Source: Dudresnaya verticillata (lineage: Eukaryota). Taken from it: 64,000 nt of DNA. A program made the position numbers and the translations under genes. The stretch covers positions 2,542,001 to 2,606,000 of the forward strand of contig OZ374564.1 in the NCBI GenBank assembly GCA_977862235.1. Reading direction: 5' to 3'. Each line of letters starts with the position of its first letter. Position 1 is the first letter of the stretch. This document shows positions 30,876 to 59,076 of this stretch, in pieces. Under the pieces are notes generated by a model, which searched no databases, was not told where the DNA came from, and saw only the letters and a list, made by a program, of their open reading frames with translations.

Positions 30876-30877
30876 GG

Positions 30878-37387: not shown

Positions 37388-37466
37388 CTTCAAGGTTGGT
37401 GAGCCGTTAAGAGAACGACGAATATCGTAACCCAATTGGATACTGAAGAAAATCAACCCACCAAGG

Positions 37467-38384: not shown

Positions 38385-40093
38385 ATGTCAACTCACTCTC
38401 AAAGTAGTTCCCGTCGTGGTCAGAAGGCGGAGCAGACCCCATTGGTCCCCCCAGTTGAGGACCCGGAGTCTTTGCTCCACCCTCCGAGAACTCCTGGAGT
38501 AGAACAAGAGGAACCGCCTGGTCAAGCATCCACCAATCCCGTAACAGGTAAACCCTTAGCCGGTCCTTCGAAAGAAGTCGCAAGGTATCCCCCGCTACAT
38601 TCCAACCGTAACCATTGGGTCAATACTGATCTGATGCCCCGTCTGATCAACTGGCTACATGATGAGTTGACCCTTCGGTTACCTCAAACGGTTGAACCAC
38701 TAGTGGGACACTTTCTAGAGGAACAAGGTCCAAGGACACTCTTAGAGTTTGCCGCCACGGCTACTGACAAGTTAGTCCAGTCATGGACCACTCAGCCGGA
38801 CAGTAGTCCAATCTATGGGATGCTTACCAAAATGGTTCCCCCGTTGGTCGCTCAGTCTCTCGAGGCCTATGGGCAAGCAGCGGACCCTTCAACTGGACCA
38901 AAGTCTAAACCCACAGGGGAAACCAAAGTGGAAAATAAGGAGGATGATGTCGTCCCTCCTGGCATCGTTCTACCAACCGAAACTGGTGATATAAAAAGGG
39001 AACCCGAAGGGGGTTTGTCGGACTCCGAAGGTAGTAAGAGTAACCGACAAGGATCGAAGTCCAAGAATTCTAAAAAGAAGAAGAAGAAGGACAAACGAAA
39101 GAAAAATAAGAAGAAACATCACTCATCTGAGTCTGACTCATCGTCAGTTACCTCAGATGGTTCAAGTTCGGATGATTCATCCGATGATGACCGACGGCGC
39201 CGTCGCCGGTCGTCTAAACCTACAAAGGTCAGGAGGATTAAACCCCTTAACGACCTATTTACCCGAGTGGTTAGCTTTCAAAGTTACCGATTAGACAACC
39301 GCTCAAGGCTTTACTCTTCGAGAATCTCTCGGAAAGTAAATACCTACTATAAGAGGATGGCTATTCAGATGCCACCCTCTCGGTTTTCGGGTGTAGACCC
39401 GATTAACATCTTGGGTTTCCTAGCAAGGTTCAAGGATGCCTGTAACCACAACGACATCCATGAAGGAGCGGCCGTTTGGTTACTACAATATTTTATGGCA
39501 GGAACCGCAAGGGACAACCTTCAGGCCAGGCTACAGACAAGAACCAGTATGGTTGTGGACTCCGAAGATGAGGGAGATTTGTTGACAACGTACCCCGAAG
39601 TGGTTAATTACCTTTTGGAAACTCATGCCACCGATGAGGTTATTGCGCTAGCCTATGCTGACGTAATCTCGTTGAGACAAGCAGAAGGAAAAACGGAACG
39701 GGACTTCGCAGAGTTAGTAAGAGCCAGAGCTCGCCGTTGCGGGTCGGTATTTACGGAACACCGCCTCAAGGCGATCTTCGTTGATGGACTCCTCCCGAGT
39801 ATCCGTGCACCGGTTCGTAACCGGTTGGCGTCTTCAAAGAGTTTGTCCTATACGCAGATTACACAATATGCACAAGACCTTGGAGAAGCTCATAGGAGTA
39901 CACGTGGGACGACAAACCTAAAAGGTAAAAGGGGAGTAATTCCCGTCGCCGCGGTTAGCTTCGAGAAGCCACCGTCTCACTCCGTGAGTACGTCGACAGC
40001 TACCTCTGATGGTTTACCGGGCATGGAAGACATTCATGAAGAGGAGATTTTCCAACTCGGTGAAGACTTATCCAAGCAGTCTATGTCACCCCC
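38385..40093 (+). pseudogene. gag: gag of element D, 5' part (interrupted by the DNA transposon)
   Basis: VSFQSYRL...FSGVDPINILGFL...YPEVVNYLL capsid block. No knuckle before the insertion; the knuckle is found at ~59125. Confidence 0.92.
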
Positions 40094-40570
40094 AACACCC
40101 ATTTAAGCCATTCCAGAATATGACTTTGAAAACAGACTGGAGTCGAATAGCTATTTTATGGTATTATTGGAAAGGGAAGCGTGCCCTGAGTACGATGGTG
40201 AAATCCGATTGGCCAACGGACCATTTGTTCCAAAGTTATGGCGGTTTGCGTGATTTTAGACAAAATAATTCCGGGTTTTCCGAAATTTAATTTCTTTGCG
40301 TCGATTTGGCCCGGCCGGGCCACTCCGTGGTCCGGACTGGGCCAAATTGGTCCACCCGGTCCCCACCTGCCCCATGCGCTCGCCCCCCTCTCCCCGATGC
40401 CACGGCACGCCCCCCCCATGGCACACAATGCCCCGGTTGTACCGTGCCCCCCCGCGCACCGCACCACAGATGCGTGCGCGGCCCTGTTTCCGCAGCCCCT
40501 ACTCTGCTGCGCCACGCCTTCTCACCGCACCTACTGTACTGTCCTGTGCGCGTCCGTACGGGAATACAGA
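40094..40570 (+). repeat. Left TIR of the 19-kb transposon
   Basis: Reverse complement of 58592-59072 with only scattered mismatches. Confidence 0.95.
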
Positions 40571-40609
40571 CTGCCTCGTCGCCCGTTTCCCGCACCCGCC
40601 CCGCGAGGC

Positions 40610-41095
40610 TCATGACCAGGGACAGCAGGTGATCGACGGCGCCGGCACGTATTCCGCCGACACCCCCGCCTAGTTTAGCGCCCATGCAGCTCAAGGCGCA
40701 GAGCGGCTCAAGCTCGTTGCCGCCCTGGGCGCCCAGGCCTCCGGCAAGTAGACCGTGCTCAACAACCTCTTCGGCATCTCGTTTCAGGTCGCCCCGCGCT
40801 CCACCGACGCCACCCCGGGGACCACCGGCATCCTCTCTTCATTTTCCCCCGCCAACCCGCTTCAATCCAGTCGCCCTGGATGTCGAGGGCGCCGACTCCC
40901 GGCAGCGCGGCCGTGACAGCCGTGCCTTTCAGGCGAGGTGCGCTGGATTCGCGTCTGCAATTGCTGATGTCATTCTGCTCAACCTGTGGTATCATGACGT
41001 TGGTCGTTTTGACGCCGCAGGGTATGCGCTGTTGGATGGCATTTTCGCCGAAGCTGTCAAGAACGCTGAGCAGGACCCCGGGTCTTTCAAAACTT
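40610..41095 (+). pseudogene. SEY1: Captured fragment of an RHD3/SEY1 (atlastin-like) GTPase
   Basis: QVIDG...LVAALGAQASGK*TVLNNLFG (P-loop with a stop), then after a frameshift LDVEGADSRQRGRD...ADVILLNLWYHDVGR. Confidence 0.85.
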
Positions 41096-41161
41096 CAAGA
41101 TGACGTCGTGCTCCCGCAGCTCGAGTTGCTGCTACAGTCCAATGCAAAGGAGATGAGCAGG

Positions 41162-41620
41162 AGACGTCCTTCACTGTGAAGCTATTACCTTCACGGTTAA
41201 TAACCGTTTAACTCGCTGCGCTGTTCCATCTCAACGAACATTATCTGCTGTGGCAATACCTTCGGACAAGACTGGGTCAACACCACACACAAAGCTTTGT
41301 TTAATACCCTTTACATCCAAACCACCTTGATATCCAAACCCACTCACGCCTCTGATTCAGGATCTTCTACGGTCCACTCCAACGGGACCTCCCAGCCCAG
41401 CAACCCTAACACACCCCGAGCTCCCCTCATCACCCCTTCTCCAACCTGGCCAGCCCTCGCGATCATTTCACGTGCCCATCCCATGAGCTGGTTCCGGAGC
41501 CAAAAAGTGGTATCCAGCTCAGCCAGGGCAACTCCGCGCGCCTCGATGATTTCAGCGCGGAGCTCCCTGAGTTCTTCTACAAGCCTTTCGGGAGCTGTGT
41601 CGGAAGGTAGCATTTTGTCA
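41162..41620. repeat. Inner inverted repeat, left copy
   Basis: Reverse complement of ~56578-57037; more diverged than the TIRs. Confidence 0.9.
41344..41613 (-). CDS. 89-aa helical protein of unknown function, copy L
   Basis: Intact ORF of the same length as copy R, with many synonymous differences between the two. Confidence 0.7.
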   Translation of the reverse strand: MLPSDTAPERLVEELRELRAEIIEARGVALAELDTTFWLRNQLMGWAREMIARAGQVGEGVMRGARGVLGLLGWEVPLEWTVEDPESEA

Positions 41621-41785
41621 CCGTGCATCACCCGTGGGGTCCGCAGTGTCCTTCATATAGATCTCGACACCGATACATTGTCTGCACTGAGTATAGAAAA
41701 TACCAGCATGTATACATCGAAGACAGCCACTTTGGCTGCACAAAGTTTAACAACATCCACCTGCCCAATGTCTATCGTTTCGGAT

Positions 41786-42315
41786 TTATCCTGACTCATC
41801 AAAGAACGCCGTGGCATACAAGACGCTGATGTTATGTTTAGCTTGCTCGGCCCTCGCCCTCCTGACCTCCTCCGAACCTTCCATATTTTCCTTGGCATGA
41901 TGCCATGTGACTAATAAACGGCACATTCTCTCCAGGTCGCGAACGGGCGCGCTTGCCGTCCTAGTTGCCTCGAGTAGCACAGAATCTATGTCGTGAGCTG
42001 TTGCACCATAGAAACCGTCATCACAAACTTCATAATCTCGGTCCTGTACACGGCATCCAGCATATTGCAGTCATGCTCGTGTTGCGATAGAACATGGTTC
42101 AACTCGCTGTTTCGACTTCCATTCATGAGTGTTTCGCTCTCACGGACTTCCAAAGCGTCCATCACCCGCCGTGGAAACTGCAAATACTCACTCCGAAGCC
42201 TCCTCGAGCGATTGTTTAGTCTGCATTTCAGCTGCGCTCTGACGTGCTTGTGAAACTTTCCAAAAGCAGCTTGCATGTCCGCGGACGCGGGAGCTGCACC
42301 AAGGCCCGAAAACAT
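41786..42315 (-). pseudogene. Transposon-borne hypothetical protein, probably one ORF split by a frameshift (41986-42315 and 41786-41980)
   Basis: Adjacent helical, protein-like ORFs in different frames; no recognised motif. Confidence 0.4.
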
Positions 42316-42560
42316 TGTTGTGCTAGACCCGATAATGTAGAAGCTCTGCTTGCTCTGATGCGAGCTTGGCGTTAGCTGTGAGGGGATCTACTATGTTGGT
42401 AAGGGGTGAAGTATGCAGTAATGAAAATAGACGAGCCTCTCTTCACAATCTCGGCTCGAGCCGCGGAGTTCTTTGACGCTCCACTTGTGTTCGTACGGCA
42501 TGCATTTCAATAGACATCAATAAGGGGATAGATCTTACTTCGATCTGCAACGTGGGGTAT

Positions 42561-43452
42561 TTACACTACCTGTCCACGTTGTACGTTTACGCCGCCACGT
42601 GGCGTCGTTCGTGGGTTGTCGTTTTGCAAGCAGGCAAGAATGTGTAGTGCCTGAGGACCTAAGCAAACTGTTACCGGCTGTACATAACACGAAGATCTGG
42701 GGGCACATGGCAGACGTAATGAAGACACGACATGTGAGTAGGAGGGATTCCTGCTGTTCCAAATCGGAATACTAACCGGTCCGAAAAACCAATATGTGTC
42801 AAGCAGGGAATTTGTCCGCAGCTGAACCACAGCCAAAACGCCTTTACTACAGCTCTTACCATGGGTCACACTTTCCTTTACAATCGAATGTACTGTCACT
42901 GCTCAGCTTCTCTATTTCCTTCTTTCTGCGATTGAACTTCTGAACAGCACAGTAGTACTCGTTTCTCTCACGGTAGTTACTGAACTTCCTTTCCCCACGA
43001 CACCCAACCTCAAGCAGAATGGCTAAACTTGGATCTGCCAACAGCTTCTGGTTCTCTCGATCCTGAATTTCCTGCGTGAACCGTTTGAATGCCCCTGTAC
43101 ACTCCTTCTCCTGCTCGTATCGAGACAATGAGCACTCTGAAATCCTTCTCAAGAAGCGTTGGAAGACAGACCGATCGAAAGGTCTGAAACCGAGTTTGTC
43201 GTATCCGCGTACTGCTATTCCGCGAGTCCTCATCAAGCAGAGAACTGAGAACAATTGATGCTCTCCGATTCGACACGCCATTTCCTCAGTGCTCTCATCT
43301 TCTGTGCAGAGCATCTTGAGGTCGAATGAGGACAAGTCTTCAGAAAGCTCCAATTTGTCCAGCTGAAATCCGACAGTTCTGTTACACTCTGATGTATCTA
43401 GCGACCTGCCCTGGCTTCCGACTCGTTCGCTCATTGTCTCTCCAGTCTGCAT
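42561..43452 (-). pseudogene. Transposon-borne hypothetical protein (198-aa ORF 42856-43452, possibly continuing in 42561-42899)
   Basis: ATG-initiated, charged helical ORF oriented divergently from the methyltransferase gene; no recognised motif. Confidence 0.45.
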
Positions 43453-44363
43453 AACGAGTTATCCTTCTGTTTGTTTCGATATTGCCCGCGCACTGTGTGT
43501 GTGGACGCATTACCCCCAAGATTTAAGTGTTCAGTTGTCAACTATTTATTCCAGATGGTAGAGCGGCTTTTTTCGAAACTGTACAGATCCCAACATAGCC
43601 ACGTGGATTAAGGATATGGCCTAATCAAGGAAATGGGCGTGTCTGTAGCCACGTTTTGTTTCAGATTTGACTTTGTACAGGGCCTGTCGTGGATCGCTTC
43701 CGACGTGGGAAGACAGAATTTTGCCAATACCCTTAAACGCAGTGTCTATGCTATATACGCTATATATGCTATTGGATGATATCTCGAGATATCATGTAAT
43801 CAAAGTACCCTTTCCGCATATCTCAGTGGATAATAATGCCTCCCGCCCTGCTCAAAACAGCGTCACTGTGGCCTTTACGTGTTGTAACGTGGCGGAAAAG
43901 GCTGCATGATTTCTTACTCCACCTAAGAATTCAGGTGGCCCCTCATGAAGAGGAAAAGTGAAATCAGAACCTCTGGACGGTAGGTTTGTCCTGTCGTATG
44001 GTCTCCCGATTCTTAATCCTACACTTTGCGGACTGTACGGTAGTTTTCACTGATTAAAGCAGTACGAGTTGCACGAGGTGGTCAAACCGTTCTGGCACTA
44101 GACATGGGAATACTGAACGGGCATGTGCACTGCAGTATCAATATGCCATCCACTGACTCTGAAATGATTGCAGCCTGAGCCTCGACGACAACAAAGTTAA
44201 CAGAACGTTTCACGCCTATACGAGCATAAGCTCGTGTCCCGCAACGTTTTATCAAGACATTCAGCATCCTGCAATAAGGGCTGCAGAATTGCGGAACCCA
44301 CAGAACAGAACTGTGACAGACCTTCGAAACTCGCCGCCGCGTTCAACAGGGAGTTTGTACGAG

Positions 44364-47329
44364 ATGACGAGAAAGGGAAAAGGACAAGGGGTTGATAGCT
44401 CCCCTGCAGAAGCAGAAATAGCTTCCTCCATTAGTAGAGGGAAGGCGTTGTTCCCTGATGTCATGGATGGCTCGGTCAACATTCGAATCGACCCCAGAGC
44501 ATGTATTCCATTGAACAGATAAGACCTGTTTTGCGATCTGGTGTGGAACGACTAAAAGCGCGTTTTCACCTACGTTCTTCTCAAGACAGGGAGGGAGTTG
44601 TTGGCTACGTCGCTGGGTCCGACTCCCCTATCGTTGTAGAACTAAACGGAGCACTAAGGGGTTTGGTTGTAGCATATTTCAAGAAGTCGAAAACAGAAGG
44701 AGGAAAGTTGTGTTCCGACGAGGATGCGTCGGTAAAGGCGAATAGTCGTGCCAAGTGGTATGGTATTGTGGATGGTGTACATCGACATAGTGTCATATCA
44801 TAATTAATGGAGGAAGTTCCCACAGTGTGGCAATCGTTTGCGTGGCCAGTCACCGTACTGAAAGGCGGTCACAGCGTCTGTGAACTACGACAGCTTGCCC
44901 GTCACCAGAACGAGAAACATGCACAGGGTTATTTCATCGAAACTACGTTTTACGATCTTATCCACGGCTTGCGACAGGAGGCTGACCGGTTGCAATCCAA
45001 GACAGGGAAGCAACCCAGCGCCCCCAGAATTGCTGAGGCTTATGATGGCTCGAAGCTGTATCGCAACAACACCATTAAACAGACTGCTCAGACTGTTATG
45101 CGTTTGGATCAGAAGGTTATCGATGCAATAGGACTCATCACAAATGAGGAAAGGCCGGACTTGGCTGCCAGGATAAGCTGCGACAGGGAAGGCACGTCGA
45201 TGGACAAAGATGGGGCAATGCGAAGCGTCGACTGTAGAGTGTACAGGAAATTCATCCATATATCGTCTCTAAAGTCTGCAGCATCATACATGAAAGCAAG
45301 CAAGATGTCGGACGGGGTGGAAGTCCAGATAGCTACATTGTACAGACTCCGTGAAATGCACCGACTTCAGAACTTCCGGCCTGTGGCAAGCTATCAGACC
45401 CTGGAGCAGTTTCAGAAAGCGAAGGAGGCAATGAAGGAAGCGCGTAAATTCGAACGATTGTTGGAGACCCAAACTTGGCCGGAAGGTATGCAGGTCATTC
45501 GGGAAAACCTTTTGCACTCCACGAAGTTGGACCATGAGGTACGCGCGAACTTCGGCAACGATCAGGATGTTATAAAGCCGTTGCTTGATGCATATCGAAG
45601 GGAATGCCCTCAGGAAGCTCCACGGAAATAAAAGAAGTTTAGATACCAGTTCCGCACACAGGTCGAGTCCCAGGGGGAATCCAATCCCGCAACTGGCCAG
45701 AAGGAGAGCCATTCGGTTTCAATGTCTAAGATTGGCTCCGATAGCGTGGTTAATCGGAGCAATGCCGAGGAAAAGGATGGAATGGACGGGATGGCACTTG
45801 AAGAAGAGCAGGAAAATCTCGACATAACTACCGGCGTCGTCAATCAGACACTGCATATGACCACACCGGTCAAGGTGCATGGCAATGAAGATGGCGAGAA
45901 TGGTGAGACCGGTACAGCAGAACAGGTTGATCAGCGTGGAGAGAATGTTTCCAGGCCCTCTATTCGCTCAGCGGCATCTACTCGACAATCGGAGAGATTA
46001 AACACATCGTCTATTGAGGGAGACCGTGATGTTATCTCCAAATGCGGAATAAGCACCCATCAGATGCTGTGGCAAGAGTATGACCAGTCAGTCCGAAACG
46101 AGTCCAGTCCTCTATTTGACCTTGTCCTTGCAGACCCACCGTACGGGATACCGAAGGGCATGTCAGACGCTGGTACTGCGTATGATAACAGATTTACTGA
46201 AGAGGACGTCAGGCGGTTGTGTGAGTTCTGCGGACGAGTAGTGAAGGAGGGTGGGTGGGTCTTCATCTTTTGCAGTTTTATGAACTTCCCCACATTTAGA
46301 AGAGCTCTTACGGAGAAGAGCTTCGATTGCCCGCAGTACCCATTTCTGATATGCAAGGACACAGCTACGATGCAGATAAGTCGCAGGAAGGGATTACAAA
46401 ATGGTGCTGAGATTGCAGTATTTGGCAGGCGAAAAGGAATATCGAAGGCATCATTCTCCCCCGACTTGTCAAGTCCGTACCACTACGTTCCATGTGGCGA
46501 GAGAAGAAAGTTCGCTGTCATGACATCTGTTCCCGCGGCAAGGGATAAAATTCTGAAGCCTGGAACGACTAGAGCTCCGCTTCTCACAGAAGAAAAGAAC
46601 CCGGACATGCTCACTGAAGTCCTTACCACGTTCTGCCCTGACGGAGGTTCTGTTCTGGACACACACGCCGGAACGATGACTACAGGAATTGCGTGTCTCA
46701 GATTGGATCGGAAGTGCACTCTTGTGGAAAGCAAAGCTGAGACGTTCAGATTAGCCACAGAAAGACTACAACGCCTCGCCAACGAGAAACAAAGTTGCGT
46801 ATCTGGGGATTTACTTCCAAATAAGCGTTCAACGGATCTTTCGGAGACGCAAGAAAAATCGAAGAAGGCGCGTCAAGCTGAGTGCGGAGTGGCATCGCAC
46901 ACTAAGGATGTCACAGAAGAGGGGAAGGATGACAAACAGGGTTACAGTGTCGTGCAAGACTCAGTAGCAGTGAAAGATAAAATCTTGTCTCAGGACTCTT
47001 CCTTCAAGCGCGGTGGGGCGAAACTGAAAGGGGACGACAGAGTGTGGCTCAGATACGGGCAGCAGAAAGTTGGGGAGGCGACAATTCAGCCGAATGAATA
47101 CGGAACTGGGGTTAAGGAGAAAATACACGGTCACTCGTTGCAGCAGTTCAGCAAACCTGGTGAACATCTCGTGGCGGTGTTCTCATTCAATCTGTTAGAG
47201 GCATTTGCTGACAAGCCATACAATTACACCTTCAAGGGCCCGGAGGAACAACCGGCCCTGCTTAGAGATTTAACTGCATTCTTTGCGTGGGATCTCAAAG
47301 AGATGGAACCTTTCGAACCCGAGTCGTAG
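44364..47329 (+). pseudogene. ParB/Srx-like domain fused to a beta-class amino-DNA methyltransferase (N6-A or N4-C), ~990 aa, disrupted
   Basis: IRPVLRSGVERL...SPIVV...WYGIVDGVHR (ParB-like, 44771-44785); FDLVLADPPYG (DPPY at 46133-46144), EEKNPDML, VLDTHAGTMTTGIACLRLDRKCTLVE (from 46658). ORFs 44501, 44807 and 45722 share one frame, separated by TAA at 44801 and 45629; one frameshift near 44515. Confidence 0.88.
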
Positions 47330-47428
47330 ACATCTTGAAACACCTGCACTTTTGCTGCGTAATAAACTCACATTTTTCGCCAGTCAAGAGTGCGCTTCGT
47401 TCGGCAGGCAGCTCTCGTTTCCATACCC

Positions 47429-47752
47429 ATGGCGTCATCGCGAGACAATGGACATGAGGCCGGCACTGCAATGGACGTGGATACGGAAGCACTTCTCTCC
47501 GAGGTACGGGCTCTTCGAATGGAGGTAGACGCGCTACGAACTCGAGTGGAAAGTGCTCTGCAGAGAATGAGCGAGATAACCACCAACGTCATGGACCGCT
47601 TGTCGAGGGTTGTGGTTCAGGCAGTGCACATTGCGAGAGCTGCGAGAAGAAGACTGCAAACCATCGAACGGCGTCTTGGGATACAATTCCTGGGTGAAGA
47701 CGACCCTGAGTTGGATTCGGATATTGAGAACCAACTTCAACACAACCTCTGA
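47429..47752 (+). CDS. Small coiled-coil protein (107 aa)
   Basis: MASSRDNG...LLSEVRALRMEVDALRTRVESAL heptad pattern; acidic tail. Confidence 0.55.
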   Translation: MASSRDNGHEAGTAMDVDTEALLSEVRALRMEVDALRTRVESALQRMSEITTNVMDRLSRVVVQAVHIARAARRRLQTIERRLGIQFLGEDDPELDSDIENQLQHNL

Positions 47753-47773
47753 AAAGCTCGACCAACACCCGAA

Positions 47774-48046
47774 ATGCCGTTGCCCCTTAACCCAACCGTT
47801 GGCGACGCACAGGTCGAGGTCATACGACTACGTCAACAAGTCGCCCATCTGCGGAACGTAGTCCGTAACCTGGAGGGCGAAGTGCAAAGCGCATCCAATT
47901 TCGTTCGCTACCTCATTCAAGAATTCGGAAGAAGGATAATAAGTGCGCTTCGTCATGCTCGGCGAAATGTACAGGACTTGCACCGTTCTGTACGTGCACT
48001 TAGGGAGGAAGTAGAGCGCGATGTAGAAGACCCACTCTCGGAATAG
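47774..48046 (+). CDS. Small coiled-coil protein (90 aa)
   Basis: VEVIRLRQQVAHLRNVVRNLEGEV heptads and acidic tail; starts 21 nt after the previous stop. Confidence 0.55.
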   Translation: MPLPLNPTVGDAQVEVIRLRQQVAHLRNVVRNLEGEVQSASNFVRYLIQEFGRRIISALRHARRNVQDLHRSVRALREEVERDVEDPLSE

Positions 48047-48391
48047 GCTTCGTGCAATTGTTGTAAACGATCTGATTTGATTGTCCATACCTGTTGCGAT
48101 GACAACCTTCGCAATGCCGTTTTCGGATCCGCTCGAGCGCACACGCTTACCCACTGAGACATCCACATTGAGCAGACGGGAGAGAATATTACCCGCATGG
48201 GTTTCTTTGTCGCCCGCCATTTCGCATCACTTCTTGACCTCTGCGAGAATCTGCCCCTCGCCATTAACAAGCGAGTCCAGACCGACCGACACGCGAAGCA
48301 GATGCCATGAGGCCTCATCCTCATGTTAACATGAGAAAATGCTTTCGCAGCTCCGCGACGCTCAAGCCGCTGTAGTTTGACAGCCGGGCGA

Positions 48392-49237
48392 CTACTTCCT
48401 GGGTCTCACGGAAGGGGTGTTCCAACACAAGATAGACCTCCACACGTTTGTGGGTACTGTTTCAAGAAGCCGTTTTGAAATGTCACTATCGCGCTTCTCT
48501 TCGTCAAGTTCATCTGCCTTGTTGGCTTCAACCTTTCCATTTTGCCGCTCTGCTATTTCTTTCGTTAGCTCTGCAGATGTCAAAACTCGGAGAACTTCTT
48601 CAAAAGTCGGCCTAGCATCTTGGTCTTGAGCCCAACATCGCTCAATTAGTTCCCGTAGCGTTGGCGGGACGTTGTCACTCTCGTGAAACTCAGGTCTGCC
48701 ACCCTCCGATACACAAAACATTAGCTGAATGGGTTTCATCTTTGGAAACGTAAAACGACTGGTGTACATTTCATACAGTACAATACCAAATGAGTATACG
48801 TCAGCAGCTGGAGTGTAGGGCTTCCTTTGCATTACTTCGGGGGCCATTGTGTAGGGTGTGCCGACGACTCCTGCTCCTCGTCCGTCCTGCGAGCTGTTTA
48901 TGCCAGATGCTTCATGCACGAACTGGCTGCCAAGTCCAAAGTCACATATGACGCAATGAGTAATCGTGCGGTTGATTAGAATATTGCTTGCCTTTAAATC
49001 ACGGTGAAGGATTGGTGGAGACGAAGCATGAAGGTAAAACATGCCCCGAGCCACGCCGCACTCCATTTCCAGAGACTGCTCCGATGAGAACTTCCGAGGA
49101 TTCGGTCCATGCAAGAAGTTTGCAACGGAGCCTCCAGAGTACAACTCCGCGATGATGCACACGACTGGCTCGAAGGTACTTGATACGATCAGGGAGGTGG
49201 GTACTGCAGTTAAATGTTGGTCAAACATGTTTATCAA
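48392..49237 (-). pseudogene. Captured fragment of a TKL-group protein kinase (C-lobe only)
   Basis: ARGMFYLH, HRDLKASN, DFG, GTPYTMAPE, DVYSFG, CWAQDQDARPTF; no Gly-loop or VAIK upstream. Confidence 0.9.
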
Positions 49238-49359
49238 CTCCTGGAACCTCAGCTGAAAGTGTACTGGCAGGTTCCAGTGCTTCCAGAACTCTGCTGTCGC
49301 ACCGAACGCGGTATTTTAGACCTTGTTTATGGTGAGCCACTTGATCCAGCTCGAGTCAT

Positions 49360-49700
49360 CTTGAAAAACGCGCCATCGAAAAGTCTGCTTAGCCTGAACG
49401 ACAGTTGGAAACTTTCACCAGCAATTCGCTCGACGAACATCAGCCCCACCGCGGACGGCGTGGAAGCAAACTCGGAGTACTCCTTGAGCAGCCGCTCGCA
49501 TTTCAGGAGCAGATCATTCGCGTCGAGCAATGTGCGCAGCGCAGACGTCCTAGCAGCAGCCTCGCGGCGCTGCACGAGGGTAGTGTGAAGGTCGCCGATC
49601 GGCTCGTCCAGCAAGCCGAGCAGCGCGACCAAGTCGCGGCGGAGCGCTTCCAGCGAGACTGCGGCCGCGTCGGCAAGCGGCTCCGAGGCGGCGATAGCCG
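49360..49700 (-). pseudogene. COG2: Captured fragment resembling the N-terminal region of COG2 (conserved oligomeric Golgi subunit 2)
   Basis: LVQRREAAARTSALRTLLDANDLLLKCERLLK...VERIAGESFQLSF resembles the recalled COG2 pattern (QR..AA...L..LLD.....K.E.L...ERIA.E...L.F); from memory only. Confidence 0.55.
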
Positions 49701-50309
49701 GGCCGAACGAGGTGAAGGTGTTGAAGCATGTAGACCGGCCCGAACAGCATGAAGGCGAGGAATAGTGCGAGGAATAGTACAGGAATCAGGGTATCCAACA
49801 CGCATGCAGCGGCGGTGGTGGAGCAGAGAGACGCGTTGAGTACTTCTGTGAGGCAGTAGCTAATTCGTTTCTCGTGCGTGGGAGCTATCGACGAATATGG
49901 ATATTTATTATAGCTCCTCGGCGACGCCCAGATCGAAAAGCTATTTTCTTAGGTTTCACGATTCCGCTTCCTGAATAGCTATGTAGCTAACGAGATTACC
50001 TCCAGGCAAATATCTACTTTTTTAGGTTTTTCATTCTGACTAAATGGGGAGCTATGTAGCTCCGGCGGAGTCGCAAATCAACAACCTATAAAAATAGATG
50101 TTTCATTTGGCGCATCTCAACATCTATTGGCCGATATCTATATTCGTGTATAGCTTTTCCAGATCTGCGTCCTGGTTTGCTACTGATCTCAATGTGTTAC
50201 ACAGGGCCTGGCCCACCTCTTCGTACTACCATCTCTTGCTTTGCACGTCCCGGGACGTGCAAAGGGAGAGGCCTCTCCGCCGCCGCAACCCCCCGTTCCC
50301 CCGTTCAGG

Positions 50310-51270
50310 AGATTGACTCACCCAAGCCCTTGAAGCATCACACTAGCTTTATCAACTATGTCTGCTTCTCCCCGGGCAGCTCCAAGCTCGCCATTGCGTC
50401 CTCGGATAGGTCCATTAGCATTGTCGACGTCGCCGAGGCGGACGTTATCGCCACTTTCAAGCGGCACACTGCGTCTGTCACTGGCCGGTGTTGGGCGGAT
50501 GACGGCTCCAAACTGCTGTACTCGTCGAATGACAAAACCACCCGCATGTGAAGCATTCCAGATGGCGAGTGCCTATCCACTGTCACCTTCGGCTCTAATG
50601 TCATGGACATTCATGTGGGCTGCACGATTGCCCGCAACACTGGCGAAGTAGTGTTCGCCTCGCTGCATTCTGAGATATTTATCACTGGAGCCGATGGAGA
50701 GCGCGAGACCGTCATGCGAGCGAGAGGGTTAGACGGGTGTTGCAGCGACGGGGCGTGGGTATGTCAACGCGGTAGGGGCGCGAGGGGCGGGCTTACCGTC
50801 TTCAAGGGCTTCGCTTCGGACTTTCCCGAGGGCTTGACAGCGGTTCTCTTCGCGCTGGTCATGGTGCGGGTGCGGAGGTGGGCGCGGTGACGGGCCGGGA
50901 GGAGTGGGGAGGGGTGTGTGGGAAGTGTGAAGGAAGGGGAAGGCGTGGTCGAGGTGCGGTGGGGGTGGTGGGGTTGGCGCGGTGGGGGGCTGGGGAGGAC
51001 TTGGGCGAGTGTTAAGAAGGGGCGGAGGGGCGAGCGGAAGCTCGCCGATGCCGACACTCTGCTTTGCGTGGCCGCGCGGCCACGCAAAGCAGAGTGTCGG
51101 CATTGCCGACGTGGCAGATAGGTTCTACTCGTCAGACTACTCGGGGCTCATGTTTGCTTGGACCTGCTCTTCAACGGCAAGGGCCCAAACCACTGCTGTT
51201 TGTTCTATTCCTGCTAATGACCAAATTGTCGCGAATGTTGGACAGGACGTAAAGGTTTTCATCAGGATGG
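50310..51270 (+). pseudogene. AIP1: Captured WD40 fragment, AIP1/WDR1-like, interrupted at ~50718-51075
   Basis: HHTSFINYVCFSP...HTASVTGRCWADDGSKLLYSSNDKT..*...VMDIHVGC...ETVMR, then RGHAKQSVGI...YSSDYSGLMFAW. Confidence 0.7.
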
Positions 51271-51465
51271 GGTGTCTCACGGTGAGGGCAGGATGCGAGT
51301 TCTTGCATGTCACTTCGTATCTATAGCAGCGCATGAACCGGTCTCAGACTCCTGGGCGCTACTACGTGAGGCTCAAACTCAACTCCTAAACATATTTATT
51401 CAATATCAATCGTCCCATGGCATCATTTCGAGCAACCGATACCCGCTCGCAAGGCTTTGTGGTCC

Positions 51466-53814
51466 CTACGCGATATTTTCCGATCGCATGTCCAGGGCTT
51501 CCCTAATTTTCCGTTGCGCAGTCACCGGGATCCCACCATTTGTTAAACGAGCGAACTCGACCAGTACGGAGTTTTGAGGGACTTTATCTCTCCATGGAAT
51601 GGTTTGGTCGACACCTTTGGTGACTTTTGCTTTTTTGTACCTCCCTGTAAACGTATTGCCTCTGCCCGTACTCCTCTGGTACCACTCCACCTCCAGAGTT
51701 GTTATCCTCCCCGTTTGGTTAGAATTCCAGTCCGTGATTTGGCCAAGCCAGAATGGACAATTTTCAGTACAGTCATCTCCCAGAACCGCTACGAAGCTGT
51801 TCTTAGTATAAGGTAGGTCCTGCCTCACAACTTGCTCTTCTCCTGAATCGGCTTTGGAATCGGAATCGGAATCACCAGCGGGAACGATGCCACTAGGCTT
51901 GTAAGAACCGTCTAATTCAAAGACATCCGGCAATGACCAGTGCAAGGGGTCATCGCGGTCCGAATAAACTCTATCTCGGAGTGCCAGCAGTTTCTGCAAC
52001 TTTGTGTGGTCGTTGATTCTTGTTTCCTCGGAACGCAGGCGATTAGTAATTTTGTGCTCGTCGGGTGGGGAGCGACACGGTGTAGGCGGTGTTTTGCTTA
52101 AGTCTGGCGGGAATAACAAGAATCCTCCCTGTCCGTCTTTTGTTTGTAGTGGTTTCCAGGATTCCTTGCTCCATATCTTGAATTCGCAGCGTGTTTTAAA
52201 CTTAGTAGGATGTGAGGCCAAAGGGCCTTCCGTTGTAAAGCGAAAGTACCGATACTCGGAAGTGGCCTCCGTTCGTCCGAGACACTCCTCCATGTTGCAC
52301 AACCCGGAGAAATTAGCAACATGGCGTATTTCTGTAACGCGCGGCTGGGGTGTGTAGGAATGTCGCAATTTGTGCATCAGATCGTCCATAGTAATTGCAG
52401 CTCTTACCCGCAGTCTCCTTGCTGTGCAGCTAAATACCTGGTCGATATCAGCATGTGTGTGCCCAATAGGTAGGAACGATGCATGCACTTCGCAAAACAC
52501 ACCCATGGCAACGAGAAACTCTAAGTACCCGAATAGATACTTGTTCTTGTTTTCCCTCGTGCAGTTGTCGGCCTGGACATACAAAGTTCCCTTGAGTGGA
52601 ATTCTGTCCCTACGGGACATTAGCATTCTGTGCAACGCCTCAATGACGTGATTGGCACCGGTCTCAAATTCACTAGTCATTGTGAATAGGTGGAGGTTCG
52701 CAGTTTGACCGTGTTCCAGGACACCAACAACTTTCGCCTTCAAGTCGTGCCCGCGAGTATCCTTCCGCTTGACATGGAAGTGGGGAAGTCCGAACGCGGA
52801 CTGATCTGCACCATCGATTATTGCAGAGCAGTAGCTCTTCGGGTACATAGATGCCATTTCGCATTTCTTGCGATACTCTGTCCTCTCCGTCATGATCGCT
52901 TTGACATGTCGTGAACGACGCTCACGAAGCGTTTCCGTGCCAGGAAGATCTGTAGTAGCCTTTGCCAGCAAGTCTTTGATATGTTCGCATTCAGGGCATT
53001 TCGCAAACCTATGCGTGCGCCGTACCTTGATTTGTGGGCAGTATCGAGTCCAGATGCTGTAAAAGTAGCTTTGAGATGGCGTCTCTCGCCTCGGATACAG
53101 AGCGTCATGTTCTTTCTTAAACGTGTTGTAAACTGCGAGTTTCTGATAGAACGGAAGATGAATCTCCTGCTTGTCGGATTGCGAGTCCCCAGAGACTTCC
53201 GCAAGGCGCTCCAGAAAAGAGACGATGACTTCCAGTTGCTCAGTAGAAGAAGAAGTGACAGCGAGCCCTCTACCCTTCCTTTCACGACTGAGATTGGTCC
53301 CCTTCACAACGGACTGAAGGTCTCTGGAAAAGCCGAACGCCCTCTCCAGAAATGTGTAGCATACAGGACGACTGCTAAAAAAATACATGTTGGAGTTGTG
53401 CTCAAGAAGCCCTGCGAGGTAGCTTTTTCTCTCGGTCCCGTTCTGCGCCATGAATTTGCGCGACTCCGCTATGACATAAACAGGCTCGATAGTGGCGAAG
53501 CACTGCTTCGTCTTGCAGCAGTAGATACCGGACATGTCCTGACTCTCCAACGTTTCCAATACCCTCCGCCTTTTCGCCTGCATTATTGACCCTGAAAGGG
53601 CTCCTTCCGGGCGGTTGACATACCTGTATTGGCGTCTGCCCTTATCCCGCGAGGCTTGCAGTCTATCATTGTTAGCCTCTTTATCAACATCCCTGGTCTC
53701 CGTTGGGGTCCAGTCTGGTGACTCGTCAGCGTCCGGTGTGTGATTATCGTCAGGACGCACACTATCATCATTGCTATCATTTTTTGGTGACTCGTCCCTC
53801 CTTGTGGTACACAA
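51466..53814 (-). CDS. DDD transposase core, Sola-like, with a C-terminal BAH/Tudor-like segment
   Basis: CC...C...VC Cys cluster, IHLP, FAKCPEC...H, IIDGADQ, LYVQADNCTRENKN, FLPIGHTHADIDQVFS; tail FWLGQI...LEVEWY. Confidence 0.85.
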   Translation of the reverse strand: MCTTRRDESPKNDSNDDSVRPDDNHTPDADESPDWTPTETRDVDKEANNDRLQASRDKGRRQYRYVNRPEGALSGSIMQAKRRRVLETLESQDMSGIYCCKTKQCFATIEPVYVIAESRKFMAQNGTERKSYLAGLLEHNSNMYFFSSRPVCYTFLERAFGFSRDLQSVVKGTNLSRERKGRGLAVTSSSTEQLEVIVSFLERLAEVSGDSQSDKQEIHLPFYQKLAVYNTFKKEHDALYPRRETPSQSYFYSIWTRYCPQIKVRRTHRFAKCPECEHIKDLLAKATTDLPGTETLRERRSRHVKAIMTERTEYRKKCEMASMYPKSYCSAIIDGADQSAFGLPHFHVKRKDTRGHDLKAKVVGVLEHGQTANLHLFTMTSEFETGANHVIEALHRMLMSRRDRIPLKGTLYVQADNCTRENKNKYLFGYLEFLVAMGVFCEVHASFLPIGHTHADIDQVFSCTARRLRVRAAITMDDLMHKLRHSYTPQPRVTEIRHVANFSGLCNMEECLGRTEATSEYRYFRFTTEGPLASHPTKFKTRCEFKIWSKESWKPLQTKDGQGGFLLFPPDLSKTPPTPCRSPPDEHKITNRLRSEETRINDHTKLQKLLALRDRVYSDRDDPLHWSLPDVFELDGSYKPSGIVPAGDSDSDSKADSGEEQVVRQDLPYTKNSFVAVLGDDCTENCPFWLGQITDWNSNQTGRITTLEVEWYQRSTGRGNTFTGRYKKAKVTKGVDQTIPWRDKVPQNSVLVEFARLTNGGIPVTAQRKIREALDMRSENIA

Positions 53815-54766
53815 TTCAACTTCATCCGAGGCGTTGCGACTCCCTTTTTGCCATTATTCGCAGTATCCAATGCGTACGGACGACGGCACATGGGAGCTTG
53901 TCGCTCAGGAGTGTAGACGAGTAAGGGCTGTTCCGGGACAGGCGAAGGCGTTCTTTCCTTGGTTTGCTCGATACCTTCACCAGGAAGTGCCTCAGCCACT
54001 GAGTCTGTACTTGTTCTATTCTCCTGTAACGACCGTTTCGGAGATTCAGAACGGGGAGTAGGTATTTTAGTTCCCATCCCTATCGTTTTAGCAAGGCGCT
54101 GCAGTAGACCAGGCCTCGCTTTCCGTGATGGAAGCACCCTTCGAGCAACACGGCCATCATTTGCCGTATTACTTGTCAGTTTCGACTTGACAGGTATATT
54201 CCCTTGCGCACCCCTGTAGTTTCCTCTTCCGTTTGCTTTCTCTTCCCATTTTTTATCTGCTCCCTGTCCCAAACATGAATTCCAACATTGAGTCCAGAAA
54301 GAGTGTTGGGTGGGGGCTCCAGTCCTGGGTACTTGTATTTGTAACGACTTTGAAGATGGTCTTTGTGAACTTTGAAATTGTATATGACTACCCATGTCTC
54401 ACCCTTACCTTGCAACGCCTTCAGCGAACGACCATGCATCTTCACCTTGAAAGCTCCCGTGTCATCCGCTTCTTCGGGTGCTGACGGCCTCATTGGCTCA
54501 GCCGTGCCTACCTCCTTTCCATCCATCATAAGTACGACACTCCTCGCTTGTACATGTTGCCTATCGCGCTGTTTGACGGAATCAGAACCGGGAGACTTGA
54601 CGGTAACCATTATTTCGCGCTTCTCTTCGTGTTCTTCCTGCATGTGCTCGTCGTTACGCAGATTGCAAGGCGTAGGATGGCACCCCGCAGTCGTTGGAGC
54701 GTTTCTTATGTCCGCAGTGACAACTTTAGCCATGCGTCTCTGCGCATTCTCCCGATCGCGACCCAT
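53815..54766 (-). pseudogene. Probable N-terminal part of the transposase gene (two -1 frameshifts), containing the domain shared with the methyltransferase
   Basis: Overlapping ORFs 54176-55060, 53583-54395 and 51466-53814 step by -1 each; ATG at 54766 (MGRDRE). Confidence 0.6.
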
Positions 54767-56577
54767 CTCGCTTTTGTGATTGTGGGGTGAGATATCGATG
54801 TTCCACTGTTCGTATCTCTTCCTTGCCAGTGGAATGCGTGCACAGAAGAGTTGCCGGTGAGGGGCCTTCCGGAGTGGAATGCAGTAGGTTTCGATATCTC
54901 CAAGGCGTAAAAGAACGGTATTGGGTAGGGTGTACCTGGTTCGCGAACCAAGCGAGGGAGTGGTGTCGCTGCAGATGCAGTGTAGCCAGACTGAGAATAT
55001 GGGTACCCTTCGGGATACGCAGTCCCTGGAACTTACGGTTACGTGAAGAAAGAGAAGCAAGCAAGCAATTCAGTACGATTCCGGAATCGGACTCACTGGT
55101 GAGTTGGCAATCGGGATAGCGTGTGGAGATGATCTTGAAACCAGTGGTGGAGGCGTTTTCTGCGATTTAGATCGTGATCGAGGCGTGAGATTTTAGTAGA
55201 CTAGCCACTCTGGATCCAAAGATTCAGCCATGTCATTCATTGGGGTGCACAGCAGTGATGAATGACTAATAGGCCACCGTCTATGCCAATCAGAACCTGT
55301 GTCAACCCTGGACATGTTCCTTTTGCTGCAAGTGCAACACTTTCATACACGAGTATGGTCTTGAAGAGTATCTGTATTTGCGTGGAACCAGCTTATGGGA
55401 TGGTTGGAGGTCCCGGCGGAGTGGACGGTGGTAAGTTCTGAATCAGAGGGGTGAGTGGGATTTGGGTGTAATGGGCAATAAGGGCGACATTCCGTGTGGC
55501 TTTGAGCAAGATTTGTTTCTACGTACTGGCTGTGCAAATACGTCGCAGTAGGAATCTTCTGACTTGAGGGAGATTATAAGTCAGTAGTTGTGGAGTTGAC
55601 TGGTAAAGGTCCTACGGTTAACATATACATGACGCCCGCCGCAGTTCAAATATGCAGCGGAGCACTCCGCTGCCCCTCCTGGCGTCGGTCTCACGTTATT
55701 GCGTGGCCCGCGCGCTGGAGCTCATGATAGCCCCGCCAACTTTACTAGACGTGAGGCGCAAGCATCACGATCGTGACGATACGAGCTGGACGCAAAGGTC
55801 ATTCGGCCCCATGGCGTGCAAGGCAAGGTGATCAGAAAGGGGCATTTGTGACTTCACTAAACATGTTTATTGTGCACAATAACAAAGCCTCTTAATTGAT
55901 AACGCGAGAACCATAATATGTATTCCGAATGCCAGCGCCGAGTCTGTGAGGAGAGTAATGTTGGGTTGGTGGTCCTCGATGTTGCACCTCATCTTATCTC
56001 GACCAACTTTATTCAGACCCATTCAAGCATCACGACGCGAGCATGATGCAAGGACCATTCAGCCGCGGCTGCGCGCGTGGTGTACAAGGAATTGTCGCAA
56101 AACAACAGAGGATATTTGACCATTGCCGTGTGGGTCACATCCTGGTAAGGACGAGGCCAGTATCGTGCATACGAGCCGGAAACCTCAGCACATTCAGCAC
56201 CGTACCTGCAGCATGGAAGCACAATGGCAGGGGACGCGGCAATATCAAGATGGGCAGCTGCCAAATGTCGCCAGCTTCGGAAGAATGTCCCGCCAGCACG
56301 TCCTGCTGACCGAGTACCGTCGATTGTCTATGCAACGGGTTTTGAGCATGCCGAATGGTCTCAATCCTGACGCTTCATAGGAGCAGTGTCGTGGGATTTC
56401 GGACGCCATTCTTAACCACGATACCAGTGTGTAGGATGTGAGCCCCCCGTCAAGGTTGAATGAGGTGATCAAACACCGCATTTCTTTCCTCCTGAAAACG
56501 CCTGCGAAGTTGACTCGAGTCGAGGGTTGTTGATCAATAGGTCAGCGTGGAGACACGGACCCGAACAGTGAAGCAAA

Positions 56578-57037
56578 GTGACGAAATGTTATCTTCCGAC
56601 ACAGCTCCAGAACGCCTAGTACAAGAACTTAGGGCACTCCGCGGTGAAGTCATCGAGACGCGCGGAGTTGCCCTGGCCGAGCTGGATACAACGTTCTGGC
56701 TCCGAGACCAGCTCATGGGATGGGCACGCGATATGATGGCGAGAGCTGGGCAGGTTGGGGAGGGGGTGATGAGGGGAGCACGGGATGTGTTAGGGATGCT
56801 AGGCTGGACGGTCCCGTTGGATTGGACCGTAGAAGATCCTGAATCAGAGGCGTGAGTGGGTTTGGATATCAAGGTGGTTTGGATGTAAAGGGTATTAAAC
56901 AAAGCTTTGTGTGTGGTGTTGAACCCGTCTTGTCCGAAGGTATTGCCACAGCAGATAATGTTCGTTGAGATGGAACAGCGCAGCAAGTTAAACGGTTATT
57001 AACCGTGAAGCTAATAGCTTCACAGTGAAGGACGTCT
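56578..57037. repeat. Inner inverted repeat, right copy
   Basis: Reverse complement of 41162-41620. Confidence 0.9.
56586..56855 (+). CDS. 89-aa helical protein of unknown function, copy R
   Basis: MLSSDTAPERLVQELRALRGEVIETRGVALAELDTTFWLRDQLMGW...WTVEDPESEA; intact paralogue of 41344-41613. Confidence 0.7.
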   Translation: MLSSDTAPERLVQELRALRGEVIETRGVALAELDTTFWLRDQLMGWARDMMARAGQVGEGVMRGARDVLGMLGWTVPLDWTVEDPESEA

Positions 57038-58591
57038 ACAAGGTAGTCTTTCTCAAGAAGACCGCCGAGGTAGGGCCAGAGCATCACGATTTGCCCATGG
57101 TGCAAGCGCCTGGGGTGCCGGATACGATGAGAGGCGACGACGCGAAGTTCTCATCATGTGGACCTCTCCCAATATTAATGATACAAAGTTCTCATCATGT
57201 GGAGCTCTGCCAATATTAATATTTGTTACGCAGTTTGTCGCCGTCAGCGTCAATCTTCACCGTTTGACTCCCTAGATTTTCCTCCTATGTAGTGCTTACG
57301 AGTATCCAGTAGGGATGCTCTAGCTTTATGCTTTCGTAAAGTGACATCTACCCCCAATATTAAGACTTACTGAGATTGACAAGAAGGGAAACATCGGTGC
57401 AGGGCCAGGCGCTGTGCTGCGTCGTGGGGAGTTAACTTTGTAATGTAAGCAGTCCGTATTTGCAGAATGCAAGCATTGTTAGTAGTGTGCCCTAGGGCAG
57501 CACCCACCATGCCGTAACAAGACTGCGAGGGCCCACCGCAATCCGTCGCTTGGTGATACTGTGATTGCATTTAACGACGATAGTTGGGCTGACACGATAC
57601 GCAATTCAATGCTTTGGACAGGGGTCGCCATGAGGTGGGATAACGGCGGACTTCCGCTCAACCTGAACCTCCTCTTTTCCGTCCCTTCAAGCCACAGATT
57701 CCGAATGAAACGAAAAAAATTATGGCGAAAGGTACTCCTACTGGCGCTGAAGAATTAGCCAAAGCAACACAGACCGCCGTCGCCGTTGAAGGTATTCAGC
57801 AAGAGGCGACTGTGATGGATGGAAACAGTTGACGATTTGCGAAGAGCCACAACAGGTCCACTTCCCTTTTGTGTCAGAGTAAGAACGAATTGGACACGAT
57901 TTTCAGGATTCAGAACCTAGTCGCTTGTGGGCTGAATATATTCTATCTTCTCTGGGAGGCGAGTTCAGTACGTGGCTGAGTGATCTGAAGAGCTTCAATG
58001 ACGTTGTTGTTAATGTCTCCGGCAATTATGTTTATGGAGCAGCAGTGCATACCGTAGTCGCATGTGGTGGGAGTATGAATCATTTTAGCCATTCTGTGGT
58101 CGTTAGCGAGTGAATCTAAGGCGTTTTGACAACCGCAGCAATATCCCAAAGCACCCCACCACACATCACCAGCACCCTGCTCCTCCCTCTCCACGCCTAG
58201 ACGTGGAGTAATTTGTCTGGCTGGTATCAAAAATATTCTCTCGGCCGCGGGTTAGAAAACAACCCGATCCTGCTGAAAGAAGTCAGTTGTGGCGCTCTGC
58301 GCCCCAAGTCAATCACCCACACGCTTGCCACGGGCCAGCATGAAGCAAGCCGTCTCATCCGTGGCCGCAGTCGTGCCCACAAGCCCTTCACCGCCTTTCC
58401 CCGCCGTGAGCTTAGCGAGGGAACAACGCTTCGCACTGCCGTCGCGTCTGACGGCGATTACTGGACCAACTAAATCAGTGAGACCGGAGCTCCGGACTCC
58501 TAGGAGTAGTCGCGCAGGTACTGAGCTATATATGGAGGTGCTTGTTGGGTCAGGCGCACATCTGTACAGCTTGAGAACGCGGTGACGGTGA

Positions 58592-59072
58592 TCTGTATGC
58601 GTTCCCGTACGGACGCGCACAGGACAGTACAGTAGGTGCGGTGAGAAGGCGTGGCCCGGCAGAGTAGGGGCTGCGGAAACAGGGCCGCGCACGCATCTGC
58701 GGTGCGGTGCGCGGGGGGGGCACGGTACAATCGGGGCATTGTGTGCCATGGGGGGGCGTGCCGTGGCATCAGGGAGAGGGGGGCGAGTGCATGGGGCAGG
58801 TGGGGACCGGGTGGACCAATTTGGCCCAGTCCGGACCACGGAGTGGCCCGGCCGGGCCAAATCGACGCAAAGAAATTAAATTTCGGAAAACCCTGAATTA
58901 TTTTGTCTAAAATCACGCAAACCGCCATAACTTTGGAACAAATGGTCCGTTGGCCAATCGGATTTCACCATCGTACTCAGGGCACACTTCCCTTTCCAAC
59001 GATACCATAAAATAGCTATTCGACTCCAGTCTGTTTTCAAAGTCATATTCTGGAATGGCTTAAATGGGTGTT
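58592..59072 (-). repeat. Right TIR of the 19-kb transposon
   Basis: Ends ...GGCTTAAATGGGTGTT, followed by CCCC. Confidence 0.95.
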
Positions 59073-59076
59073 CCCC

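Follow-up and report, generated by a model that had tools for sequence, protein, structure and literature searches.

The closest described system to the element considered here is Sola1-1_Ec32, a DNA transposon of the brown alga Ectocarpus. It has a length of 21,549 bp, AACCG-CGGTT ends, a 282-bp imperfect terminal inverted repeat (TIR) and a 4-bp target-site duplication (TSD) biased toward sequences ending in A; opposite its transposase it carries a gene for a 1104-aa protein with a ParB-like and an N4C/N6A methyltransferase (MTase) part, a gene type that is transcribed in Ectocarpus and for which the idea of self-modification was stated (PMC12477816; this paper and those cited below are used to the extent of the accessible parts of their texts). 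We have analyzed a 64,000-nt stretch of contig OZ374564.1 of Dudresnaya verticillata (positions 2,542,001 to 2,606,000 of the forward strand; 'the window', in whose numbering all coordinates are given). Between positions 40094 and 59072 it contains an element of 18,979 bp, which we interpret, with a probability of about 0.8, as a single cut-and-paste DNA transposon of 19 kb that likely belongs to the giant algal Sola1 type, sits in the gag gene of a gypsy retrotransposon and carries a now-broken ParB-MTase gene.

Typical Sola1 elements are smaller, ∼5.4 kb on average in bivalves (PMC10294476), and those of insects prefer AWWT targets (PMC3845634). Large transposable elements (TEs) of other superfamilies are known from red algae: Plavaka elements of 17-19 kb have accessory genes for methylase and ParB proteins, which pass from one TE family to another, and giant Mutator elements also carry PAG1-3 (bioRxiv 10.1101/2025.02.11.637652), while EnSpm elements of 16-20 kb occur in Chondrus (PMC6431247). 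The EnSpm elements of Ectocarpus have CAC ends and a 2-bp TSD (PMC12477816).

The ends of the element were well defined. The left TIR (40094-40570, + strand, 477 bp) starts with AAC and the right one (58592-59072, - strand, 481 bp) ends with GTT; 466 of 476 aligned bases are identical, with 10 mismatches plus 6 gap positions. The tetranucleotide CCCC stands on both sides, at 40090-40093 (as read from the sequence) and at 59073-59076. A previous reading of the window made from the letters alone (the sequence-only reading) had claimed ∼480-bp TIRs of this kind, and this description proved accurate. The left TIR includes a perfect 16-bp palindrome (40307-40322) as well as the palindrome ATAGCTAT (40144-40153).

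The terminal 20-mer was found solely at the two ends of the element, the next-best sites in the window having five mismatches. Thus neither TIR arm can be the end of a small transposon, and the case that would have undone the earlier reading, each TIR belonging to an independent small transposon, found no inner partner in the window. The same observation bears on a broader alternative, that the structure is an assembly artefact or consists of two small inverted elements flanking unrelated DNA. Several frameshifts inside the element do resemble 1-nt losses, two of them with A-runs in the frame overlap, as in uncorrected long-read assemblies. Still, the TIR arms differ by 10 substitutions, so that the assembler has not simply duplicated one arm, and the flanks are successive parts of one gag in one frame; together with the confinement of the 20-mer to the outer ends, this makes such an explanation very improbable.

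The 5' part of the gag gene in question, truncated by the insertion, lies at 38385-40093 (+ strand) and has 29-31% identity to two other gags in the window. The rest of the host retrotransposon lies at 59077-63582 (+ strand), with a zinc knuckle, a protease-region open reading frame (ORF) and a pol with reverse transcriptase, RNaseH, integrase and chromodomain. The two halves of gag are in register if four (or one) of the C's are counted as duplicated and out of register for zero, two, three or five. It had been claimed that excision of the element plus one CCCC rejoins the capsid region in frame with the zinc knuckle. The frame is indeed shared, but a stop codon at 59102-59104 precedes the knuckle, so the frame is in register and not open. 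Also, the linker from capsid to knuckle, as counted from alignments, is shorter by ∼55-70 residues than that of two distant gags in the window; the reconstructed empty site is thus consistent with the linker comparison and not fixed by it to the exact base. The presence of a single TIR pair, the 4-bp direct repeat and the split of gag within one frame agree with the earlier view of a single element inserted after the retrotransposon.

The transposase gene is an ORF at 51466-53853 (- strand), encoding 705 aa from a Met codon at 53583, with a CxxC..H motif, aspartates D257, D339 and D379-381 and, at ∼51514-51828, a C-terminal BAH-like domain. This ORF matched DUF7869 in Pfam (E-value 7.7e-50) and no other Pfam family. 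Among its 125 homologs, PF25273 was present in 120 out of 120 listed, and the best full-length ones had 43-49% identity. In the alignment D257 was conserved in 120 out of 120 rows, D339 and D379 each in 119 out of 120, and D381 in 121 out of 121; the CxxC..H upstream of the aspartates was nearly invariant in 121 aligned rows. A structure model of the protein (predicted local distance difference test score, pLDDT, 90) produced no Foldseek match at E≤0.001, the top two rows being BAH domains followed by integrase cores; in a wide structural search residues ∼196-414 matched Metnase (Z 8.1, root-mean-square deviation [rmsd] 3.4, 162 aligned residues), as well as Mos1 and integrases at Z ∼8. The predicted fold and the invariant aspartates support a Sola-type DDD enzyme with an RNase H fold, as the sequence-only reading had proposed. 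The motifs DNCxRENKN and GHTHxDID presumably correspond to motifs of Sola1 transposases. On the basis of these presumed correspondences and of the anatomy of the element, which shows the features of Sola1-1_Ec32, an assignment to the giant algal Sola1 type is likely.

Two other assignments were considered and rejected. For a Plavaka or EnSpm element with a PAG cassette we would have to explain that the only transposase is of the DUF7869 type, that the ends are AAC and not CAC, that a 2- or 3-bp TSD breaks the gag frame and that there is no SET domain. Sola2 transposases have CxxC, H, D, D and HxxxxD in the same order; their DFxENY, SDGxxxQYKN and FFATSHGKxxCD motifs differ, as judged by eye from Additional file 10 of PMC3627910.

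In the transposase model, C-terminal residues 586-690 matched the BAH domain of ORC1b (Z 7.0, rmsd 3.5, 87 aligned residues), along with the BAH domains of EBS, DNMT1 and AIPP3 (Z 6-7), and the two BAH domains that head the Foldseek results have E-values of ∼0.008-0.009. Matches to a chromodomain (5in1, Z 6.4), PWWP and Tudor domains (Z 5.8-6.4) equal or nearly equal those to BAH. The domain is covered in 103 out of 121 transposase rows, with F611 conserved in 104 out of 107, W634 in 104 out of 105, and W612 conserved too; position 636 is mostly E or D (79 out of 98) and not aromatic, where the positions are those we take to form an aromatic cage. As far as the model goes, a BAH-like barrel, perhaps a chromatin reader, is possible.

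Upstream of the Met codon, the likely N-terminal part of the transposase lies at 53583-54562 (- strand) in two other frames; it comprises a low-complexity linker and a ∼100-aa domain (54242-54562), which we call domain X and which is also present at the C-terminus of the MTase. The closest transposase homologs, P0001 and P0002, have domain X at their N-termini, and the transposase gene probably began with it, its coding sequence being now split over three frames. Both upstream frameshifts fit the loss of 1 nt; as an A-run is present in each frame overlap, an assembly error is possible, and whether this copy produces transposase depends on whether the two frameshifts are real. Perfect palindromes were found inside the element at 51048-51103 (56 bp), 50239-50264 (26 bp) and 43776-43795 (20 bp), the first ∼360 bp past the stop codon of the transposase gene.

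Scans with the transposase alignment confirmed one of 55 pattern matches in viral contigs and six of 43 in genome contigs, all distant (25-35% identity). These distant DUF7869 relatives reside on a contig of a giant-virus metagenome-assembled genome (MAG) (L003, 5114-5695) and in prokaryotic MAG records (L004-L009), some of which are likely eukaryotic contamination. A profile search of the contigs revealed no MTase and no domain X, and no TIR pair with TSD was seen in the five that were checked for inverted repeats.

The second large gene of the element (44355-47329, + strand) encodes a ParB-like domain, a helical part, a beta-class N6A/N4C DNA methyltransferase with a DPPY motif (PF01555, E-value 1.8e-13) and domain X (47018-47317, + strand). 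It is disrupted by a frameshift near 44.5 kb and by TAA codons at 44801 and 45629, and this copy probably makes no active MTase now. The features listed in the sequence-only reading (transposase motifs, MTase fusion, small ORFs and host fragments) are all present inside the element; its account needs correction in that the MTase gene has these lesions and the N-terminal part of the transposase is displaced into other frames.

To search for MTase homologs the broken gene was read through with X at stops. Three homologs were found among 7988 candidates, two of them with 40% and 35% identity over 93-99% of the query length, and a profile search yielded 215 representatives at E≤1e-30. Pfam scanning of 54 long homologs (from 150 listed) detected PF01555 in 48 and a SET domain in none; no SET domain was seen in the protein of the window either. 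The structure model of an intact homolog, P0146, matched CcrM (Z 24.8, rmsd 2.9, 231 aligned residues) and other beta-class N6A/N4C enzymes, while its N-terminus matched ParB-N (Z 8.2, rmsd 4.4) and PadC (Z 7.3). The predicted product would be N6-methyladenine (6mA) or N4-methylcytosine (4mC), which is an assignment of the enzyme class only. Scans with the MTase alignment confirmed none of 205 pattern matches in viral contigs and two of 245 in metagenome contigs; one of the two was a 2.3-kb contig within the gene, the other a weak match of 42 aa.

One may ask whether the MTase is just a passenger, neutral or inactive and without a part in transposition, that hitchhikes like the host fragments described below. 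The two stops and the frameshift of the present copy fit such a view, as does the finding of an exact DPPY at the motif column in just 22 out of 95 aligned homologs, where 13 rows are gapped and many others look misregistered. Yet intact homologs of 900-1050 aa (35-40% identity) retain the full architecture, the MTase domain was detected in most of the long homologs scanned, and the same gene type is transcribed in the Ectocarpus element; we consider neutral cargo quite unlikely.

A further argument comes from pairing of the two genes. Twenty-one MTase clusters were chosen as top-scoring or X-bearing, and in 10 of them a contig reaches 5.9 kb or more. For five out of these 10, contig size and source were identical to those of a transposase match, while artificially shifted sizes matched 0.04 times on average and at most twice in any of 1000 shifts. 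The probable partners (MTase/transposase) are P0122/P0005, P0145/P0002, P0144/P0018, P0151/P0028 and P0163/P0029; for the P0122 cluster, five out of six members match members of the P0005 cluster in contig size and source. This is indirect evidence that both genes share one contig in five other lineages. Over six pairs (the window and these five) the MTase similarity correlates with the transposase similarity (rho 0.81, reached in 1/720 permutations). The ParB-MTase is likely to be a part of the element's own machinery.

Domain X was observed at the N-terminus in 13 out of 132 transposase homologs and at the C-terminus in 35 out of 160 MTase homologs; a good number of these MTase sequences are fragments. 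Among the probable pairs it is located on the MTase in P0122/P0005, P0144/P0018 and P0163/P0029 and on the transposase in P0145/P0002; the element of the window has it on both proteins. When 44 X domains were placed in a tree, after removal of six near-duplicates, the transposase copies needed three label changes among the MTase copies, and the bootstrap did not settle; a single origin of the transposase-borne copies may be compatible with this tree. The X domain upstream of the transposase in the window is sister to that of P0001 (99/78, unstarred). No Pfam match to domain X was found up to E-value 10 and no usable match in the Atlas; none was among the listed matches of the fold searches, which were made with whole proteins and not with the domain alone. 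It may resemble the TNP1/EN/SPM-type domain found in CACTA proteins, a resemblance that Pfam does not support.

The interior of the element also contains an inverted repeat pair. The left arm (41162-41643, - strand) is 91% identical to the right arm (56556-57037, + strand), and each has a copy of an 89-aa ORF, at 41344-41613 and 56586-56855, respectively; a third, deleted copy of this small-ORF repeat is situated at 55384-55465 (+ strand). The two ORF copies differ in 36 codons, 17 synonymously and 19 non-synonymously, where 25% synonymous differences are expected; because of this synonymous excess (P=0.003 against neutrality) the ORF is likely a real small gene. The possibility that the pair is a nested transposon was rejected, as it has no TSD. 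Between TIR and inner repeat both arms bear unlike cargo at the equivalent position (40571-41161 and 57038-58591); perhaps a formerly longer TIR was split by captured DNA.

This interior is relevant to another scenario, in which a smaller unit of ends and transposase moved, while the MTase and much of the interior joined later by nested insertion or recombination, so that there never was one 19-kb move. The patchwork interior, the inner repeat pair and the broken host pieces would fit later assembly, and methylase accessory genes do hop among red-algal TE families (bioRxiv 10.1101/2025.02.11.637652). The inner repeat lacks a TSD, though, and over its outer 182 bp the arms share 97.8% identity, against 97.9% for the TIRs, as would be expected if the arms were homogenized together. 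Given also that DUF7869 transposases have the MTase as a partner in five other lineages, and domain X in common with it, we give later assembly a low probability and favor the movement of the 19-kb element as one unit, though not necessarily with every internal piece already aboard.

Several considerations weigh against this interpretation. The element is known from a single copy in the window. Its TSD sits within a C-run, where a 1-bp duplication matches the gag frame equally well, and falls outside both the AWWT preference of insect Sola1 (PMC3845634) and the A-ending bias of Sola1-1_Ec32; this is one insertion only, and the algal element is itself described as differing from AWWT. In the pairing analysis five of the 10 long-contig MTase clusters remained unmatched and the clusters were pre-picked as top-scoring or X-bearing, while one further size match, at 4334 bp, cannot accommodate both genes and has to be a chance hit. 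Shared host descent alone could yield the correlated divergence of MTase and transposase. Finally, the modelled matches to BAH are modest (the Foldseek E-values above, and a Z of 6-7, the range of common folds), with the chromodomain 5in1 tying them.

How the element might work can be outlined as follows. End binding, excision and staggered insertion are established for DDE enzymes. The transposase would accordingly be expected to bind both ∼480-bp ends, to excise everything between them and to insert it with a 4-bp stagger. It is conceivable that the ParB part binds and spreads on element DNA and that the MTase adds 6mA or 4mC there, favoring expression or resisting silencing; we put this somewhat below even odds. 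More tentatively, the predicted BAH-like domain could tether the transposase to chromatin and bias insertion to silent, TE-rich DNA like the retrotransposon hit here. That domain X, being on both proteins, would join them together or to the same DNA or chromatin is a doubtful suggestion. One could combine these ideas and speculate that the Sola1-type transposase and the ParB-MTase form an old, co-diverging two-protein machine of red and brown algae, in which the BAH-like domain would read a histone mark to land in silent chromatin and the X-coupled MTase would write a 6mA/4mC self-mark to escape silencing; in this full form the proposal is unlikely to be right.

The host-gene fragments make up another part of the cargo. 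At 40623-41155 (+ strand) we found a 5' fragment of a SEY1/RHD3 GTPase gene (residues ∼6-186; Pfam RHD3_GTPase, E-value 1.9e-14) with two stops and frameshifts. Over 76 aa it is 80% identical to the Chondrus crispus protein P0297; with this 76-aa piece 19 proteins were found among 107 candidates, the four with a species name coming from Chondrus crispus, Agarophyton chilense, Gracilaria domingensis and Gracilariopsis chorda. Provided that the fragment derives from the host, this suggests a florideophyte red alga. Chimeric fragments occupy 48392-49785 (- strand): a protein-kinase fragment (PK_Tyr_Ser-Thr, E-value 2e-38, covering positions 57-257 of the 258 in the profile and thus without the beginning of the domain), a COG2 piece at ∼49200-49280 (COG2_C, E-value 2.9e-5, profile positions 1-29 of 300) and, upstream of the latter, a helical piece (49327-49785) that had no Pfam match and looks COG2-like on reading its residues. 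A WD40 fragment (E-value 2.8e-9) with one stop lies at 50330-50700 (+ strand). Since the SEY1, COG2, kinase and WD40 pieces are all truncated or stop-bearing, in the manner of Pack-type elements, we propose capture of host fragments: by analogy with the cargo capture of Pack-MULEs, they were likely copied in during gap repair and are now decaying. The sequence-only reading had credited the element with its own accessory gene set, which applies well to the ParB-MTase and moderately to the duplicated small ORF and does not extend to these broken pieces.

Other small features of the interior include an apparently frameshifted ORF at 41786-42387 (- strand) with no Pfam match and an ORF of ∼198 aa at 42856-43452 (- strand) with no Pfam match and no usable Atlas match. 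Two short coiled-coil ORFs (47429-47752 and 47774-48046, within 47429-48046, + strand) are weakly related to each other, with a pair score reached by none of 1000 shuffles, a result that coiled-coil bias can produce; their Pfam matches were all sub-threshold and to coiled coils only. Weak kinship was also seen between them and the small duplicated ORF (scores reached by 4, 9, 101 and 285 of 1000 shuffles). The stretch separating the divergent host fragments contains a cluster of nine AGCTA/TAGCT motifs in ∼300 bp (49857-50160), perhaps an array for binding or methylation; none of 100 shuffles was as extreme, but clusters almost as strong exist in other parts of the window. No family was matched in an Rfam search.

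Outside the element, a long terminal repeat (LTR) at 37466-38362 stands directly upstream of the host gag. It is 90% identical to the LTRs of another element at 6807-20103, with proteins of which those of the host gypsy element have 30-52% identity only; the sequence that comes after the other 5' LTR is missing here, and a nearly matching 5-bp repeat flanks this LTR. It appears to be a solo LTR belonging to that other family and not the host element's own. The host protease region starts with three tandem 98-bp copies (59472-59779) that are at least 96% identical. Element 6807-20103 contains, antisense and downstream of pol, a 619-aa ORF (16392-18251, - strand) with no Pfam match. A second, younger LTR element (21037-26716, - strand) has 379-bp LTRs that are 99% identical. 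A 2.6-kb inverted repeat pair (81% identity, 26944-33455), with a third partial copy at 34569-35450, adjoins a DDE_Tnp_4 (Harbinger-type) ORF (36175-36861); these repeats are possibly an older large foldback element.

With regard to the literature, neither a red-algal Sola1 that carries an MTase nor a description of domain X or of a Sola transposase with a BAH domain turned up, although Repbase, the bioRxiv supplements and the Current Biology version on Bostrychia lay outside the search and may hold them. No description of DUF7869/PF25273 was found. The word 'Sola' is absent from the main text of bioRxiv 10.1101/2025.02.11.637652, whose Supplemental Table 6, likewise outside the search, may list such elements.

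In comparison with the known systems, animal Sola1 elements share the 4-bp TSD, the TIRs and a DDD-type transposase with the element described here and differ in being ∼2-5.5 kb long with one gene, short TIRs and AWWT targets (PMC3845634, PMC10294476). Pack-MULE-type elements likewise hold chimeric broken host fragments between long TIRs, whereas here there is no Mutator and the element carries its own transposase (PMC6431247). The giant Plavaka and Mutator elements resemble it in red-algal host, in size (17-19 kb) and in accessory genes with a PF01555 methylase and a ParB-like domain; the Plavaka transposase belongs to another superfamily, and there the methylase is joined to SET (PAG2) and ParB to a 2OG oxygenase (PAG3), while here ParB and methylase make up one protein (bioRxiv 10.1101/2025.02.11.637652). 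VANDAL elements, with VANC, provide a parallel for a transposon-borne accessory protein that acts on the epigenetic state of its own element (same source); VANC is unrelated and removes methylation, while the accessory protein here would be a bacterial-type amino-methyltransferase whose role is a proposal.

The closest match is still Sola1-1_Ec32. The two elements share size (21.5 versus 19.0 kb), AAC...GTT ends (AACCG there, AACAC here), a 4-bp TSD, a long imperfect TIR (282 versus ∼480 bp) and a ∼1000-1100-aa ParB-MTase gene on the strand opposite the transposase. The host here is likely a florideophyte red alga and not a brown alga, the MTase is broken and the TSD is CCCC and not A-ending. 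Host fragments, domain X and the BAH-like domain, present here, go unmentioned for Sola1-1_Ec32 in the accessible part of its description, and the likeness is judged by anatomy and description. The suggestion of the sequence-only reading of a giant cargo-bearing lineage is thus upheld as to anatomy and not as a novelty, a giant Sola1 with ParB-MTase being already in print (PMC12477816).

The locus extends that record by a red-algal representative of the Sola1-type version, by indirect evidence for pairing of the two genes, by domain X and by a conserved, predicted BAH-like domain. The giant Sola1-plus-MTase design, described from one brown-algal family, is thereby extended to what is likely a red alga and so to a different supergroup, and its occurrence in red and brown lineages would point to a partnership of great age or else to horizontal transfer. 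If the BAH-like domain is indeed a chromatin reader, its presence on a cut-and-paste transposase would parallel the chromodomains of gypsy integrases. The intact MTase homologs (P0122, P0146 and others), along with their probable partner transposases, make the published idea of self-methylation directly testable.

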